DNA from: Escherichia coli
GTDB lineage: Bacteria; Pseudomonadota; Gammaproteobacteria; Enterobacterales; Enterobacteriaceae
Assembly: GCF_003018235.1 (NCBI RefSeq)
Contig: NZ_CP027439.1
Length of the DNA stretch: 64,000 bases
Direction: 5' to 3' (one strand)
Shown here: in pieces, positions 15,840-22,415 of the stretch
How positions within the stretch are numbered: the stretch's first letter is position 1
Layout of the letters: each line of letters begins with the position of its first letter
Translations under genes and position numbers: made by a program
The notes under the pieces: generated by a model
Databases searched by the model: none
The model's input: only the letters and a program-made list of their open reading frames with translations
What the model was told of the DNA's origin: nothing

Positions 15840-16086
15840 CAGATATCAGCATTCACGGCTTGGGATGCGTGCCGTTTTACTGGCCAAACGATTGAGGAAG
15901 CTTAATGGTATGCCTTCCTCAAATCTTGATAATGGCAGTTGCTGGTCTGTACAACATGTATTGTGGACTGAGTGGAGGAAACAACGAAAATCCAGAGCCA
16001 GAATGGCATGCCCGGGTACCTAACTTTTTCAGATGCAGGGATGCGGACAGATCATAAATCTTCATGTAATGTTTCAGGAGTCAGTT

Positions 16087-16521
16087 ATGGAAAATATGAT
16101 GAAAACTATGCGTGAGTATTTCCCCACGCGAACAGTAGTGTTCGAACAGTCTCTGGATATGTTTGGTATCACCCGGGGTAAGGATGGGAAGCTCATATTT
16201 CCCCGTCATTCTGATAACCGTTTCCCGATCGGGCGTATCCGCAAACGTCTGGCAGCTTATGGCTGGCGCGGAGAACGTCTGAATCAGGAAGTAGCGCGTA
16301 TCGTCGCGGGTCCTGGTGTTCTTCCTGAAAGAAATGATTACAGCATATTTTTTCCTTACGGATGGGAACGTAACCAGCTTACCCCTGAGATGCGGAGAAT
16401 GTTTCCCCGGAAGACTGGTCGCCGCGTGCTGCTTATGCTGGATGAGCTCCATTATATTCATGACGCCGGGGAGCGTAAGTCGTTTTCACCAGAAAGTAAT
16501 GAAGCACCCGAGGTATCATGA
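16087..16521 (+). CDS. Hypothetical protein co-transcribed with the tyrosine recombinase (stop/start overlap ATGA)
   Basis: SD aggag upstream of ATG 16087. No recognisable domain. Translationally coupled to the recombinase. Confidence 0.55.
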   Translation: MENMMKTMREYFPTRTVVFEQSLDMFGITRGKDGKLIFPRHSDNRFPIGRIRKRLAAYGWRGERLNQEVARIVAGPGVLPERNDYSIFFPYGWERNQLTPEMRRMFPRKTGRRVLLMLDELHYIHDAGERKSFSPESNEAPEVS

Positions 16522-17300
16522 ATTACCCTTCTCTTCCCGGACAGGCCTACGCCCCGGAAAAAGTGCATCTACCTATGGCCATCGATTACCCGGCAGCGCT
16601 GGCCCTGCGTCAGATGGCAATCGTCCAGGACGAACTGCCGAAATACCTGCTGGCCCCGGAAGTGAGCGCCCTGCTGCATTATGTCCCCGATTTGCACCGC
16701 AAGATGCTGCTGGCCACGTTGTGGAATACCGGTGCGCGCATTAACGAAGCGCTGGCCCTGACCCGGAGTGATTTTTCGCTGGTGCCACCCTACCCGTTTG
16801 TGCAACTGGCCACGCTGAAACAGCGGGCGGAAAAAGCGGCCAGAACAGCAGGAAGAACGCCTGCCGGCAGCCAGGCGCATCGCTTGGTACCGCTGTCAGA
16901 TAAACAGTACGTCAGCCAGCTGGAGATGATGGTGGCCACGCTGAAAATTCCCCTCGAACGCAGGAATAAACGTACTGGCAGAACAGAGAAAGCACGCATC
17001 TGGGAAATTACCGACCGCACGGTCCGTACCTGGCTCAGCGAAGCGGTTGAAGCGGCAGCGGCTGACGGGGTGACGTTCTCCGTGCCGGTGACACCGCATA
17101 CATTCCGTCACAGCTATGCCATGCACATGTTGTACAACGGTATTCCGCTGAAAGTGCTGCAGAGCCTGATGGGACACAAGTCAGTCAGTTCGACAGAGGT
17201 GTACACGAAGGTGTTTGCACTGGACGTAGCTGCGCGACATCGGGTGCAGTTCCTGATGCCCAGTGATGATGCTGTGGCTATGCTCAGGGGAAACACCTAA
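16518..17300 (+). CDS. Small tyrosine site-specific recombinase (FimB/FimE-like, no N-terminal SAM-like domain)
   Basis: Catalytic-domain motifs: GARINEAL (first Arg), HTFRHSYAMHML (H-x-x-R), LMGHKSVSSTEVYTKV (catalytic Tyr). Only about 50 aa precede the catalytic domain. Confidence 0.85.
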   Translation: MNYPSLPGQAYAPEKVHLPMAIDYPAALALRQMAIVQDELPKYLLAPEVSALLHYVPDLHRKMLLATLWNTGARINEALALTRSDFSLVPPYPFVQLATLKQRAEKAARTAGRTPAGSQAHRLVPLSDKQYVSQLEMMVATLKIPLERRNKRTGRTEKARIWEITDRTVRTWLSEAVEAAAADGVTFSVPVTPHTFRHSYAMHMLYNGIPLKVLQSLMGHKSVSSTEVYTKVFALDVAARHRVQFLMPSDDAVAMLRGNT

Positions 17301-18339
17301 GTGGTAAAACAACTGAAGATTACTCCAGTGTGGTCACTTAGCGATTGAGGCTAAGTTCCAGAGTGGTGGCGTTCAGTTATACCCAAGTGTGACAGGCTGA
17401 CGCGCCCGTCGGGCTTGTCCAACCCTTCGCCTGCTCAGATCCAAGATCTGAACAGACTCACGGTTTGCGCGGTGGGTCAACAAAATTAAATACGATCACC
17501 AGAAATATTTTCTGGACACTTTTTCCGATAGTGCCGAATTGTCCAGGTTGGAAAGCATTTTTTGTGCGTTGTTGAAGGGCCGCGACGAGTGGAGCAAGGT
17601 GACAAAAATAATGCTGGACAGAAAAACCTGAACGTCCAATATGGGGAAAGGATTACGTGACGGGGCGGGTTTGCTAGCAGTTCTGCGAACGTACCAGCGC
17701 ATCGAGGACTGGTAATGCCAGCAGGCTATTACGTCCGGGCTGGAAAATCGAGAGTTGCGATGATGACGAGGCAAGGGGATCGCAGACATTAACCTCTGCA
17801 ATAGAATATCTATTGCGTGATTTATTATAAATGTTATCCCTTTATTGTTTTCCAATTATCCCCGCAGTTGAAGAAATCAGCACTGAATAAAATTTTCAAA
17901 ATTTTATTCATGATGCTTACAAATAAATTAATGTAGATGAATCATCGGGATAGACTATTCTACATCAACTGCATTCTTAATTTTACGTCAAAATCAAGCG
18001 TTGCACTAAAATAAATCCTTACTAGAATAGCTATCCAGAAGAATCACCATGTATTCTTCAGTCTGACCCTCGGGCGCAGATTCTTGTTGTATTAAAATAT
18101 TGGGAAAATAAATCAGGAGTGAAAATGCAGTGACAGAGACACGTTACACAACGTCTGAAAGCAAAAAAGCCCTGAATAATCAGAGCTTTATTACTGGATT
18201 GGAAATGACGGCCATCAAATCCAATTCAAAACACACCAAAGGCATGTCCTCAAGTGATGAAGATAATAGAAAACTATTCAATCTACGTCAACCGAATGCC
18301 TGCGGTAACAATCCCAAAGCCGTTATCGGAGGTACGATT

Positions 18340-18441
18340 ATGTTGCCATTGCTCAACACGTTCATGAATGCCCCTCTTCTGAGTCAGGGGGCTACTATCC
18401 TGTTTCTTGGGCTTCTTATCCTTGCGCTCAAGAACCAGTGA
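18340..18441 (+). CDS. Small hydrophobic peptide (33 aa, MLPLLNTFMNAPLLSQGATILFLGLLILALKNQ)
   Basis: SD ggagg lies 7 nt upstream of the ATG. Predicted single transmembrane helix. Followed by a hairpin terminator (agctggcttcggccagct). A longer GTG-initiated ORF (18130) in the same frame is an alternative. Confidence 0.4.
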   Translation: MLPLLNTFMNAPLLSQGATILFLGLLILALKNQ

Positions 18442-18601
18442 TCGCACTGAGCTGGCTTCGGCCAGCTTCTTTACTTGGATAGAATCACCTGAACGTCCAG
18501 TCGGGCGCTAATTTATAATAAATGACCGTAGAAGGGCCATTTCTACGGCAAAGTTCTGGAGATGATAAAATAAGGGCCTTAAACAATAAAAGGGCTTGCT
18601 T

Positions 18602-19003
18602 ATGACACTGGACCAACTGCTTGAAATCCACGACTGCGCTGGGCTGAGCACCTATGAACAGGAAACAATTATATCTTTCATTAACCAGCGGCGAGGTGAC
18701 TTTGGTGTAAAAGCGTTTCCGGAAATTATGCCTCCAGTATCTTGCGGCTGGATCTCCAGAAGAACAAAACAACGTTCTCAGGAGCAGGCAGACGAAAATA
18801 GCTGGAATTATTATAAACAGAAGATTCAGGAATGGATAACGCTAATCGAATTGCATGAGGCATCACTTACTAGGGGGGAAAAGCTAAAGCGCTTTGTGGG
18901 AAAGCATAAATGGTGGTTAGGAGGCACTTGCGCAGTTATCGCATCAATTACAAGCACTGTGATAGCTAGCTGGATTCTTTCGTTATGGACTTGGGCTAAC
19001 TGA
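18602..19003 (+). CDS. Hypothetical protein with C-terminal transmembrane anchor
   Basis: 134-aa ORF. The C-terminus WWLGGTCAVIASITSTVIASWILSLW is hydrophobic. The ORF is bounded by repeats R2 and R3. Confidence 0.45.
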   Translation: MTLDQLLEIHDCAGLSTYEQETIISFINQRRGDFGVKAFPEIMPPVSCGWISRRTKQRSQEQADENSWNYYKQKIQEWITLIELHEASLTRGEKLKRFVGKHKWWLGGTCAVIASITSTVIASWILSLWTWAN

Positions 19004-19339
19004 CGTGACAGAAGCTGCGTTACGTCCAAGTTGATAAAAAGTTGTTATCCACAGAGAACAGGGCGGTCATCCGGCGGGTTCAATAATATGATATTATTAC
19101 AGCACCTTAAAAAATAAGGATTGCGGACGGATGATATATTGATAAAGGATACTCATGCGTGTAAAACGCAAAATACCCTGAGTAATCAGGGTATTAAACG
19201 CGGAAAAGTAAAGGTTGAGCGCTTTACATTTTCCATTCACACCAGAGGCGTGACTAAATCTAAAATTGATTCTACGGCAACGTTCAATCTACGTCAAATC
19301 GCCAATGGTTTTCCTGTTATGAAAATTACCGGAGGCTTC

Positions 19340-19450
19340 ATGTTGTTAACCATCATCGACACCTATCTTCATGCTTCATTACTGACACAGATACTGGTAA
19401 TCCCGTTTATCTGTGCGGTGGTGTGGGCGGTAAAGAAAATCCGGGTATAA
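19340..19450 (+). CDS. Small hydrophobic peptide (36 aa, MLLTIIDTYLHASLLTQILVIPFICAVVWAVKKIRV), paralog of 18340..18441
   Basis: SD ggagg upstream. Shares the upstream motif ttcaatctacgtcaa with the first peptide gene. Followed by the hairpin catggctggctgagaggccagccatg. Confidence 0.4.
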   Translation: MLLTIIDTYLHASLLTQILVIPFICAVVWAVKKIRV

Positions 19451-19645
19451 CTTAAACATGGCTGGCTGAGAGGCCAGCCATGTTCAGTGAGTTTTGTTTC
19501 GAATGGACAGAATAACCTGAATGTCCAAGTTTGCAAGGAATTGTGATCGTACTACAACCAGTGTCAACCTTCCTATAATGCAGATAATCTTCTATAATTT
19601 CTTTTAATTCTGTGGCGATGTCATTAAGGAAAAGAGGTATTATTT

Positions 19646-19903: not shown

Positions 19904-19998
19904 AATAGAATCCGCTTTGTCTTTATTTTACCCTTGAAGCCACCCATTAGTGTGGCTTTTTTTGACAAGATTACCTGAATGTCCAGGTAACGCGGGGA

Positions 19999-20445
19999 TT
20001 AATGAGAAGAATAGGTAGTTGGTATATTTAGCTTGAGTCCAATCTCCTTTATGAGATTGTAGGTATTTTCCTTACTGTTGCCAGCAAGTATTGAGGTGAT
20101 CTCATTAAGGTTTTGTGCTGCACCAAGAACTTCACCCTTTGATGGTACAAACTTCATACCTAAATAGCTTCTTTTTAGGCTACCAGGCAAGGCTGCATAC
20201 TTTGCCATTAACTGAGAAGCAGCATCTTTCAAATCGTGGATGGTTTCATGATTAGCTCTGAAATTTGTGATCGTCGCTTGCTCACGTAATAAAAGCGCTG
20301 TAATCCTCCCTAATTGTTCTCTGAATGATATATAAGGCTCAATGAATCTTTTTGCGATGAGTTGACCAACAACAAAAACGGTTACGCCGGTCAGAACAGT
20401 TACGGCAGCAGACGAACTCATAATTGTACCTAGTGACTGAATCAT
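19999..20445 (-). CDS. Hypothetical membrane-anchored protein (N-terminal transmembrane helix)
   Basis: 148-aa ORF, the only minus-strand gene in the array. Lies between R5 and R6. Confidence 0.45.
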   Translation of the reverse strand: MIQSLGTIMSSSAAVTVLTGVTVFVVGQLIAKRFIEPYISFREQLGRITALLLREQATITNFRANHETIHDLKDAASQLMAKYAALPGSLKRSYLGMKFVPSKGEVLGAAQNLNEITSILAGNSKENTYNLIKEIGLKLNIPTTYSSH

Positions 20446-20562
20446 GGGGGTTATCCTATCTGGAGGGCAACAGCCTGTCTACTGTACAGAAAATGCTGTA
20501 TGTCCAGTCTGTGCTGGAATTATAATGGCAACCATGATCATCACAGGAAGAACGAGTAACAG

Positions 20563-21042
20563 ATGGCAACTGCGTGGGTGGATGTGGCTGATAATGCCGT
20601 AAAAATAGGTTTGGGGTCGTTGTTGACTATTTTAGGGGGGTGGCTGACTCTTAAGCTAACACAAAAGCACGAATTAAAAAAAGAAGCGGCAGTACAGGGA
20701 TTAAAAGATAAAGAAATAAAAACCAAACGATATGTGGAGTTTCTGACCTTGTCTCAATCTCTCATGCAAAAATATTTATATGAGCAGTGTGAAGCAAATA
20801 ACGATGATTATCTTGCCTATCTTCGCATACATAATGAGATAACGATCACGTCAGGTTTAGCCATAAGGAAAGCAGCATTTAAACTCCAGTTTGATGTTTC
20901 TACTTTCATTTTCTACAACAAAATACACGACACAGAACTCATTAATGCACTGAGGGATAAGGCTAGAAATTCTGTTTCCATGTTTCAGGCCATTGTGAAT
21001 GAGGAAATCTGCAACGGAAAGTTTGGCACAGCAAGCCAGTAG
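20563..21042 (+). CDS. Hypothetical membrane-anchored protein (N-terminal transmembrane helix)
   Basis: 159-aa ORF between R6 and R7. Divergent from the 19999..20445 gene. Confidence 0.45.
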   Translation: MATAWVDVADNAVKIGLGSLLTILGGWLTLKLTQKHELKKEAAVQGLKDKEIKTKRYVEFLTLSQSLMQKYLYEQCEANNDDYLAYLRIHNEITITSGLAIRKAAFKLQFDVSTFIFYNKIHDTELINALRDKARNSVSMFQAIVNEEICNGKFGTASQ

Positions 21043-21118
21043 CGCTGGGCAGAATAACCTGAATGTTTAACTGCCGGAGGAATTAACCGAGGGGCGTGAA
21101 AAGGCCGCTTACGCGGCC

Positions 21119-21229
21119 TCAGTTTTCTCTTGAACTCCTGAAGTCTATGTAGTCGATAAACTCAAGAATATAGTAGGCAATCACGCCTGTACCTACATAG
21201 ATAGCTCCGAATATCAGTGACTCACTCAT
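21119..21229 (-). CDS. Small hydrophobic peptide (36 aa, MSESLIFGAIYVGTGVIAYYILEFIDYIDFRSSREN)
   Basis: SD aggag lies about 9 nt upstream of the ATG on the minus strand. One predicted transmembrane segment. Followed by the hairpin ggccgcgtaagcggcc. Not in the supplied ORF track because it is shorter than 60 aa. Confidence 0.35.
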   Translation of the reverse strand: MSESLIFGAIYVGTGVIAYYILEFIDYIDFRSSREN

Positions 21230-21491: not shown

Positions 21492-21653
21492 ACATCTTTG
21501 ACATTCGCGACGTCCGACCAGCCGAACAGGATAGAACACCCTGAACATCTCGGCTGACTGTGCTTTCATTTTTAGTCGGTTAAGCAGACGCTTTTCTGTA
21601 ATTTCTTTCAGTTCAATGTAGCTGATACTTAACTTTTTGAAATAACTAATATT

Positions 21654-21941
21654 TCACCTCATTCGTTCGCTGGCAAGATTATAAACATCACTACGTTCAC
21701 GTTTCCCTACAGCAACAACAGCGATAACTAATTGATCATCAATCACCTGATAAACCAGGCGGAAGCCAGACGCACGAAGTTTAATTTTGTAGCAATCCTT
21801 TATCCCACGCAGTTTTGCTGATGGGATATGTGGATTTTCACTGCACTTCTTTAGCTTTTTAGCAAACTGCTGCTGAATTGCCTTATCCAGTTTTTGCCAT
21901 TCTTTCAGTGCATCTTCCCTGAATCTGACTGTGTAAGTCAT
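21654..21941 (-). CDS. relE: RelE/ParE-family type II toxin (StbE-like)
   Basis: 95-aa protein with a RelE fold pattern. Overlaps the upstream antitoxin gene by 4 bp. Confidence 0.8.
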   Translation of the reverse strand: MTYTVRFREDALKEWQKLDKAIQQQFAKKLKKCSENPHIPSAKLRGIKDCYKIKLRASGFRLVYQVIDDQLVIAVVAVGKRERSDVYNLASERMR

Positions 21942-22189
21942 AGGTAGCTATCCAGATCTACATCGTGCAGCTTCTGGTTGCTGCGTTCGGCGACCAGATT
22001 AACCAGTTCCTGATCGTCTAGGGCATCGAGCATCTTTTCATACAGTTCTGCGGGGACACAGTAAAAGGCGGGCTGGTTACGGTTCAGAATCGCGACTGGG
22101 TAACCATCACCGGCACTGACTGTCGCCATCGGGTTTTTTTTCAGTTCGCTGACACTGGCGCTAGTGTCACTCAGAATAATGTGGGGCAT
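21938..22189 (-). CDS. Phd/YefM (StbD-like) type II antitoxin
   Basis: 83-aa acidic protein immediately upstream of the relE-like gene in the classic overlapping arrangement. Confidence 0.75.
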   Translation of the reverse strand: MPHIILSDTSASVSELKKNPMATVSAGDGYPVAILNRNQPAFYCVPAELYEKMLDALDDQELVNLVAERSNQKLHDVDLDSYL

Positions 22190-22415
22190 AGGGCACCTTT
22201 AGAGACTATTTAACAGGTCTTTATAGTGTTCTAAAAAAGACCTCTTAACAAGTCTTTTTGTCATTTTACTCAATGTGCCGTAAAGCCCCGCCCTTCAGGG
22301 CGAGGAGGATGTCAAATAATAGGACCCCGAAAGGATTAGTAATGTGGCGTCTTTGCTACACAGGTGCTTTTGTAATATGTTGTATAGCGTACTCACTACA
22401 CAGGAGATGTGTATG

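Follow-up and report, generated by a model that had tools for sequence, protein, structure and literature searches.

Do two tiny hydrophobic peptide genes lying beside a recombinase gene on an enterobacterial plasmid encode the toxins of toxin-antitoxin (TA) systems that belong to type I? The genes are found in a 64,000-nucleotide stretch of Escherichia coli contig NZ_CP027439.1 (assembly GCF_003018235.1), referred to as a whole as the window, which belongs to an F-like conjugative plasmid of Enterobacteriaceae with tra genes at about 40-62 kb; the plasmid also encodes a RepB-family replicon, parAB, and umuDC. Systems of type I are difficult to detect, since gene callers miss the toxin as well as the antitoxin, and, if the peptides are toxic, the locus would represent an unrecognized determinant of plasmid or cassette stabilization. 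The idea that they are type I toxins, put forward in an initial annotation of the window, is supported by the computational analysis described here, in which a predicted antisense RNA gene was found in both copies (designated A and B) and in all of their homologues. Each copy is thus probably a type I TA-like module with an organization resembling that of hok/mok/sok and ldr/rdl.

Peptide genes and predicted antisense RNAs

Homologues were collected by a word-indexed homology search, which returned seven clusters, and by an exhaustive hidden Markov model search with seven matches, whose only additions were the C and D types described here. The sequences fall into four types: A-like (copy A of the window and related loci L002, L004, L008, and L009), B (copy B of the window and IncX plasmids), C (variant P0011, found in L018-L020), and D (L017).

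Both short open reading frames (ORFs) are present on the plus strand as annotated, at 18340..18441 for peptide A (33 aa, MLPLLNTFMNAPLLSQGATILFLGLLILALKNQ) and at 19340..19450 for peptide B (36 aa, MLLTIIDTYLHASLLTQILVIPFICAVVWAVKKIRV), each preceded by a GGAGG Shine-Dalgarno (SD) sequence located at 18328-18332, 7 nt before the ATG, in copy A and at 19331-19335, 4 nt before the ATG, in copy B. The membrane helix and basic C-terminus ascribed to them were likewise recovered: the Kyte-Doolittle 15-residue maximum is 2.2-2.6 per peptide, AlphaFold places a helix at residues 83-101 of the longer frame that contains the peptide, and a basic tail follows the hydrophobic C-terminal half in both A and B. 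An internal SD followed by ATG or GTG is kept across the homologues (GGAGG, with GAAGG in L004, GAGG in L017, and GGAG in L018). The nonsynonymous-to-synonymous rate ratio (omega) of the short ORF is 0.10-0.58, with 0.73 in one comparison, changes at second codon positions are rare, and synonymous divergence (dS) is saturated, reaching 0.95 to >3 in comparisons where the dS of the upstream in-frame leader is 0.3-0.7. In L017, the leader frame is closed by an in-frame TGA, yet the peptide has an omega of 0.21-0.30 at a dS of 1.4-1.7 and thus stays under purifying selection, which identifies the peptide as the conserved protein unit. Judged by this pattern of substitution and by the conserved start signals and hydrophobic helix, the 33- and 36-aa peptides are the protein-coding unit of the locus.

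The strong terminator reported after each peptide gene was fully upheld for copy A, where a canonical intrinsic terminator detected by a terminator scan and kept in homologues spans 18449..18476 (plus strand; hairpin at 18449-18468 followed by CTTTACTT). For copy B it holds only in part: a strong, 10-bp G+C-rich hairpin, read by eye, follows the gene at 19457..19501 (plus strand; stem-loop at 19457-19482), but its U-run is interrupted (TTCAGTGAGTTTTGTTT), which is why the scan passed over it. Upstream of module A, a putative plus-strand promoter at 18001..18028 (TTGCAC-16 nt-TAGAAT) would place the transcription start site at about 18035; the promoter scan did not report it because its -35 box is weak. 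The arrangement 'aatccYtacTAGAAT' also occurs 5' of the C-type relative L018, and L008 has TTGAAC-17-TAAAAT.

The 15-nt motif shared by the two copies, TTCAATCTACGTCAA, occurs exactly twice, at 18277 and 19283, as originally noted. Its core, TCTACGTCAA, is invariant in every homologue found, while the full 15-mer varies, with one change in L009 and differences in the first five bases in L017 and L018; a composite pattern built on it matches these loci only, with zero matches expected by chance. The suggestion that the motif is tied to an antisense RNA was correct as to the link but not as to its nature, since the 15-mer constitutes the -35 box and spacer of a predicted antisense promoter rather than the target of the antisense RNA. 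As identified by a promoter scan, this minus-strand promoter occupies 18263..18291 in copy A (-35 TTGACG at 18291-18286, a 17-nt spacer, and -10 TATTAT at 18268-18263, containing the 15-mer at 18277-18291) and 19269..19297 in copy B (TTGACG-17 nt-TAGAAT, containing the 15-mer at 19283-19297). The -35 box, the -10 box, and the 17-nt spacing are kept in all seven sequence variants of the four types, and the antisense promoter is nearer to consensus than the toxin promoter.

In both copies, the scan also detected a minus-strand intrinsic terminator about 75 nt downstream of the antisense promoter, reading from 18189 to 18166 plus a T-run in copy A (AAAGCTCTGA-ttat-TCAGGGCTTT followed by TTTTGCTTT) and from 19195 to 19172 in copy B (AATACCCTGA-ttac-TCAGGGTATT followed by TTGCGTTTT), with stems that differ between A and B through compensatory changes. 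The antisense small RNA predicted between these signals has about 100 nt and three stem-loops, the last of which is the terminator, at about 18156..18256 on the minus strand in copy A (fold z-score of -6.1) and, with the same three stem-loops, at about 19162..19262 in copy B (fold z-score of -6.5; covariance-model match of 90.6 bits). The predicted transcripts read from about 18256 to 18158 and from about 19262 to 19164. The sequence of stem-loop 2 is entirely different between the two RNAs, while the overall architecture is the same. Among 10 distinct antisense sequences, the consensus fold comprises 36 pairs with 92.5% of cells paired, compared to 41-47.5% in slid controls, and 17 of the 36 pairs have changes on both sides; the observed values were reached by 0 of 500 shuffles. 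G.U cells number 61 in the minus-strand fold versus 6 in its plus-strand mirror, which is only 77.2% paired; the conserved fold therefore belongs to the antisense transcript and not to the mRNA. Thus, the element that defines a type I system, a gene for an antisense RNA with a sigma70-type promoter, three covarying stem-loops, and a terminator, is predicted in both copies and in all homologues. No further copies were found by the covariance model in the window or in the fetched loci. Taken together, the locus has two features of the type I class, namely, a small hydrophobic peptide gene under purifying selection and a predicted gene for a complementary antisense RNA.

The in-frame leader and translation of the peptides

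Both short ORFs are the 3' parts of longer frames of 103 and 109 aa, which are present as annotated, are 31% identical to each other, and do share the FNLRQ and GG residues that had been pointed out. The residues common to the paralogues coincide with footprints of nucleotide elements: L-x-N-Q with the antisense terminator, H-T-(K/R)-G with stem-loop 1, F-N-L-R-Q with the -35 box, and G-G with the SD. The portion upstream of each peptide is a plus-strand leader in frame with it, located at 18130..18339 in copy A (the N-terminal 70 codons of the 103-aa ORF, opening at GTG 18130) and at 19139..19339 in copy B (opening at TTG 19139, the counterpart in the alignment of the copy A GTG). The leader start is overlapped by the stop codon of a plus-strand mini-ORF: in copy A, the element at 18115..18133 includes the SD AGGAG (18115-18119) and ATG-CAG-TGA (18125-18133), whose TGA overlaps GTG 18130, and in copy B, ATG-ATA-TAT-TGA at 19131..19142 ends over TTG 19139. 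A mini-ORF of two to three codons with its own SD and a TGA overlapping the leader GTG/TTG is found in all four types (ATGCAGTGA, ATGCTGTGA, ATGAAGTGA, ATGAATTGA, and ATGATATATTGA).

The initial annotation had named conservation of the long ORFs across homologues as an outcome that would speak against short-peptide genes; at the protein level, this is not what was observed, with a leader omega of about 0.5-1.5 versus mostly 0.1-0.5 in the peptide. When A-like and D sequences are compared among themselves or with each other, leader omega stays at 0.45-0.62 (0.45-0.56 among A types alone), and it rises to 1.0-1.5 where B or C is compared; for leader B versus A types, it is about 1.0-1.2, with equal change at the three codon positions. 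Over the upstream 66-70 codons in general, changes are equal at all three codon positions and dS is depressed (0.3-0.7). An omega of about 1 between types together with a depressed dS marks a constraint on the nucleotide sequence or the RNA rather than on the amino acids. In the AlphaFold model of the long ORF, residues 1-61 are unstructured (predicted local distance difference test score of about 40), and helices span residues 62-79 and 83-101.

Despite this amino-acid freedom, the long frame is kept open, with no stops in six of seven variants compared to 3-8 stops in the two alternative frames (6 and 8 in leader B), and all indels in it are multiples of three. The sole leader stop, the in-frame TGA of L017, falls inside the SD position, 9 nt ahead of the ATG, and lies at the very 3' terminus of the leader. 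These observations suggest that the leader is probably translated in a mok-like manner. For a putative coupling to peptide translation, the sequence provides the open leader frame, the mini-ORF geometry, and a predicted antisense RNA inside the leader, with the leader in frame with the peptide. Hence, the long frame is probably a translated, sequence-unconstrained leader ORF that gates the peptide SD; since the two share one frame, a product with an N-terminal extension may also be made.

What would be gated is suggested by a hairpin around the internal SD. In copy A, the consensus fold pairs AATGCCTGCGGTAAC with GTTATCGGAGGT (18295..18334, plus strand), covering the GGAGG at 18328-18332; local folds of this hairpin range from -11.6 to -18.1 kcal/mol in A types, and the anti-SD block AATGCCTGCGGTAAC is nucleotide-invariant in these types save for one synonymous change. 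Two natural variants carry SD lesions, namely, a 1-nt insertion in L021 (at about 829) and a change from GGAGG to GGAGT in L034 (at about 8160), and P0003 has a 15-nt in-frame deletion overlapping the anti-SD block. Anecdotally, such lesions in translation control may be suppressors of toxicity, or else sequencing errors. Two further candidates were discarded: P0008 had been considered as a natural separation of the leader and peptide frames, but its 1-nt SD insertion occurs on a single contig and is uninformative, and P0010 proved to be merely an alternative gene call and not a distinct variant.

From these elements, a mechanism can be proposed. A plus-strand mRNA of roughly 440 nt (about 18035-18476 for copy A) would carry the 33/36-aa membrane peptide gene at its 3' end, with the strong SD locked inside the conserved anti-SD hairpin. 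The antisense RNA would pair with the fully complementary leader over codons about 9-42, and the mRNA would then be cleaved or its leader translation blocked, such that the SD remains shut in its hairpin and the peptide is not synthesized. If the antisense RNA, presumed short-lived, were lost upon plasmid or cassette loss or a shut-off of transcription, ribosomes would enter at the mini-ORF/NTG, and their passage through the leader would melt the SD hairpin, allowing synthesis of the short peptide by internal initiation or of an N-terminally extended form. Insertion of the peptide into the inner membrane would lead to cell arrest or death, and the module could thereby stabilize the plasmid and, specifically, the cassette array that carries it.

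Several observations weigh against this interpretation. The leader is in frame with the peptide, unlike mok with hok, so that the locus could mainly produce a tail-anchored protein of 103-109 aa. The antisense RNA overlaps neither ribosome-binding site, the duplex extending from about 26 nt after the GTG to about 70 nt before the internal SD, which makes the proposed mode of repression conjectural. Copy B has a weak SD hairpin (-8.3 kcal/mol) and no canonical terminator; given that no convincing separate promoter was found for it either, module B may be cotranscribed with the upstream 135-aa ORF. The SD lesions and the L017 stop each come from a single contig and could reflect errors or pseudogenes, the four sequence types represent few independent lineages and give the covariation counts limited phylogenetic depth, and all RNA ends are predictions. 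Toxicity, expression, and plasmid stabilization are inferred from the sequence.

Foremost among the other explanations is that the locus serves to make the whole 103/109-aa frame as a tail-anchored membrane protein, its mRNA regulated by the antisense RNA and the internal GGAGG/ATG being incidental or a minor second start. The open frame, the exclusively in-frame indels, and the conserved SD/mini-ORF leading to an NTG start would all be expected of such a protein, and the long ORF is annotated by the Prokaryotic Genome Annotation Pipeline (PGAP) and other gene callers in some records. This explanation is nevertheless unlikely in view of the leader omega of 1.0-1.5 between types, with equal change at all codon positions and depressed dS, the absence of a predicted fold in residues 1-61, and the overlap of the shared residues with the SD, stem-loop 1, and the terminator and -35 box of the antisense gene; moreover, the internal start retains its SD-sequestering hairpin, and in L017 a stop just before the peptide leaves it under purifying selection. 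Many small bacterial membrane proteins are nontoxic regulators, and the short peptide might similarly be an antisense-regulated regulator, exclusion or phage-defense effector, or transporter modulator with no addiction function, as could be argued from the defense-type cargo of neighboring cassettes (Abi, PD-(D/E)XK, ToxN, and HEPN genes) and from the failure of profile searches to find similarity to known toxins. A tightly sequestered SD, a long structured mRNA, and a strong, constitutive-looking cis-antisense RNA, however, are together the signature of a product that has to be kept off; natural variants with SD lesions and the prevalence of TA modules as cargo of cassette arrays also argue against a nontoxic role, which is considered quite doubtful. 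Finally, the functional unit could be the minus-strand small RNA itself, acting in trans on plasmid or host targets with the peptide frames as by-products, as this RNA carries the strongest conservation signal in the locus and has an Hfq-type terminator tail. Such a role seems very improbable, given that the peptide frame is under codon-level purifying selection at saturated dS and has a conserved SD/start and its own terminator, and that stem-loop 2 is wholly different in A and B, leaving no common trans target at that stem-loop.

Relation to known type I systems and distribution

The initial annotation had seen no similarity of the peptides to Hok, Ldr, Ibs, TisB, or ShoB, and this was borne out by profile searches of Pfam and NCBIfam, run at E<=1 with the long ORFs and at E<=10 with the short peptides, in which neither set gave a match. 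Nothing informative emerged when these ORFs and peptides and the neighboring genes were compared with Pfam, NCBIfam, PADLOC, and PHROGs. Rfam yielded no relevant family at thresholds of E<=1 and E<=10, region 17900-19600 giving only subthreshold unrelated matches at E<=10; elsewhere in the window, matches at 22200-22328 (HgcC, 25 bits) and 20772-20934 (STnc410, 21.5 bits) fall well short of the gathering score of 50 and are most likely due to chance. Neither the peptides, by sequence or WP accession, nor the motif sequences turned up in searches of the literature. The "novel type I TA" of pOXA-48 corresponds to DqlB/agrB, which is a different system.

By organization, the locus is nearest to hok/sok and ldr/rdl, while by sequence it is a member of neither, and on these sequence comparisons it is a new family within a known kind. 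The hok/mok/sok organization and the leader ORF proposed for ldr/rdl have been summarized previously (PMC8594479). As in plasmid-borne hok/mok/sok (R1 parB), the toxin mRNA would be roughly 400 nt long and stable, the predicted cis-antisense RNA lies wholly within it and 5' of the toxin ORF, the toxin SD is sequestered, and toxin translation would be controlled through a translated leader ORF. Neither a Hok_Gef domain nor a Sok RNA match is present, however, and the peptides differ in layout, with a C-terminal hydrophobic helix and a short basic tail in place of the N-terminal transmembrane segment and periplasmic domain of Hok. Likewise, mok overlaps hok out of frame, whereas the leader here is in frame and would be started by coupling to a mini-ORF of 2-3 codons; sok covers the translation-initiation region of its leader, whereas the antisense RNA of about 100 nt and three stem-loops lies inside the leader frame; and the 5'-3' fold-back element of hok/sok has no established counterpart in these modules, single-sequence folds of the whole mRNAs being uninformative about long-range pairing. 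If this interpretation is correct, the locus would be a compact new example of leader-ORF-gated toxin translation beside hok/mok/sok.

In ldr/rdl, as is predicted for the modules, a long mRNA encodes at its 3' end a peptide of about 35 aa, whose amphipathic N-terminal half leads into a hydrophobic segment and then a basic C-terminal tail; a cis-antisense RNA and a proposed leader ORF lie in the 5' leader, and paralogous copies occur in tandem about 1 kb apart. The modules differ in lacking matches to the Pfam Ldr_toxin and Rfam RdlD families, in their location on plasmid cassettes rather than chromosomal long direct repeats (LDRs), and in their longer antisense RNA. Small alpha-helical inner-membrane peptides, as predicted here, are also encoded by tisB/istR-1, dinQ/agrB, zorO/orzO, and shoB/ohsC, in which a long 5' untranslated region and an antitoxin acting far upstream of the toxin SD recall the present arrangement, such that standby-site logic may apply; in that group, however, the antitoxin genes are divergent and only partially complementary. 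No profile matches to the TisB, DinQ, ZorO, ShoB, or Ibs families were found for the modules, and in Ibs the antitoxin spans the ORF.

The modules are carried by about 110 PLSDB plasmids, the carriers being widespread plasmids of the IncX1 and IncF groups from Salmonella, E. coli, and Klebsiella. Among 5,426 complete E. coli genomes, 115 have a match to the queried region, in most cases through the module B cassette. A scan of GTDB genomes yielded two misbinned plasmid contigs, a JGI metagenome scan yielded four true matches, all of known types, along with four chance matches, and no homologues were found in IMG/VR. PGAP either annotates nothing at the locus or places a hypothetical protein of 103/109 aa there. 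In IncX plasmids, a type I toxin gene resembling dinQ/dqlB is located 1-1.5 kb from the modules (L003 3569-3670 and L004 7508-7603, both on the minus strand), indicating that IncX accessory regions carry two unrelated type I systems.

A cassette array beside a ResD-family recombinase

The peptide modules sit just 3' of a plus-strand gene (16518..17300) for a 260-aa tyrosine recombinase of the ResD family, which has a Pfam Phage_integrase match and is 85.7% identical to F ResD. Beyond this gene, 24-bp sites of the form TGGACA-N12-TGTCCA, all on the plus strand, begin at 17615, 18476, 19504, 19962, 20483, and 21046, with a degenerate copy near 21530; they bound six small cassettes, one containing module A and the next containing a 135-aa ORF and module B. 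Cassette A starts with the first site (17615..17638), which lies about 315 nt past resD and has backbone sequence on its left; in both plasmid F and L015, the stretch some 300 nt downstream of resD is homologous to this left flank. The second site (18476..18499) is the junction between cassette A and the cassette of the 135-aa ORF and module B; homology to IncX plasmids begins exactly here and stops at the third site (19504..19527), where the module B cassette ends. The array continues downstream with sites four to six (19962-19985, 20483-20506, and 21046-21069). The 24-nt motif had also been considered as a 3' RNA element of the toxin mRNA (fbi-like), which was rejected because it bounds many unrelated cassettes and its center is variable.

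Unidirectional site arrays also occur in L025 (8107-18371), L009 (5107-9920), and L015 (3047-5403), with cassettes of 0.4-1.5 kb whose cargo, in either orientation, includes TA genes, small membrane ORFs, ToxN, and Abi. At 45 distinct junctions across 28 loci, each module keeps the half-site that adjoins it, the left half going with the module upstream of the site and the right half with the one downstream. Three different right partners were found for the end of A and three for the end of B, and the start of the 135-aa cassette has three different left partners. This segregation of half-sites with neighboring modules across plasmids points to site-specific shuffling of the cassettes. About 11 stem substitutions in the listed sites, counted by eye, all keep G.T pairing on the plus strand. 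In PLSDB, 1,152 plasmids contain an extended, 80-nt form of the site, at 2,075 positions.

The ResD-family enzyme is a candidate recombinase for these sites. In an IncX plasmid, a recombinase 45% identical to it adjoins a unidirectional array of seven sites, while the rest of the 44-kb plasmid contains none. The presence of a ResD-family recombinase beside the site agrees with a ResD/rfsF-type context, and rfsF-ResD is recognized as a place where gene sets switch (PMC8004404 and PMC9412624); for arrays of such sites bounding cassettes, no description was found in the literature. The 24-bp sequence appears rfsF-like and may be rfsF itself. Integron integrase models gave scores of only 63.1 and 49.4 bits versus cutoffs of 265 and 435, and the sites are short and palindrome-like and are not attC, arguing against an integron proper. 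The mcr-10-associated xerC system was rejected as the same recombinase/site system, since its enzyme, of 331 aa, is not the same one and no motif occurs in the first 50 kb of pMCR10_090065.

As in integron TA cassettes and the pdif modules of Acinetobacter, small modules, often TA, lie between short recombination sites in varying orders and contexts, half-sites travel with the neighboring modules, and a tyrosine recombinase gene stands beside the first site. In contrast to those arrays, the recombinase is ResD-like (86% identical to F ResD) and not IntI or XerCD, and the 24-bp sites are all in direct orientation, unlike attC hairpins or alternating dif sites. A more far-reaching proposal, put forward tentatively as one that could well prove wrong, joins the two halves of this analysis: the modules would form an undescribed type I TA family, with an in-frame, unconstrained leader entered via a start-stop mini-ORF, and would serve as addiction cargo of an unrecognized integron-like system in which multimer-resolution recombinases of the ResD family, acting at arrays of directly repeated rfsF-like sites, shuffle 0.4-1.5-kb cassettes with TA, defense, and small membrane genes among plasmids of the IncF, IncX, and other groups. 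Plasmid accessory regions beside resD would then be built of cassettes exchanged at short sites, which would explain the movement of small TA and defense genes between backbones.

The surroundings of the modules contain several other small genes. A 162-aa ORF (phrog_26837, in the 16033-17300 region of the window) overlaps the start of the ResD homologue by 4 nt, and the same pair lies downstream of ccdB in L015, as in plasmid F. The 135-aa ORF that shares its cassette with module B (18596-19003, phrog_34759) has a C-terminal hydrophobic tail, and in L008 a 134-aa ORF follows an A-type module, with upstream sequence resembling window positions 18510-18560. Other cassettes of the window encode small proteins with a single predicted hydrophobic helix, of 36 aa (21119-21229, minus strand), 148 aa (19999-20445, minus strand; phrog_7512), and 159 aa (20563-21042, plus strand). 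Past the last 24-bp site and before parAB, the minus strand carries a RelB/DinJ-type type II TA pair (21600-22190), which is annotated in related plasmids.

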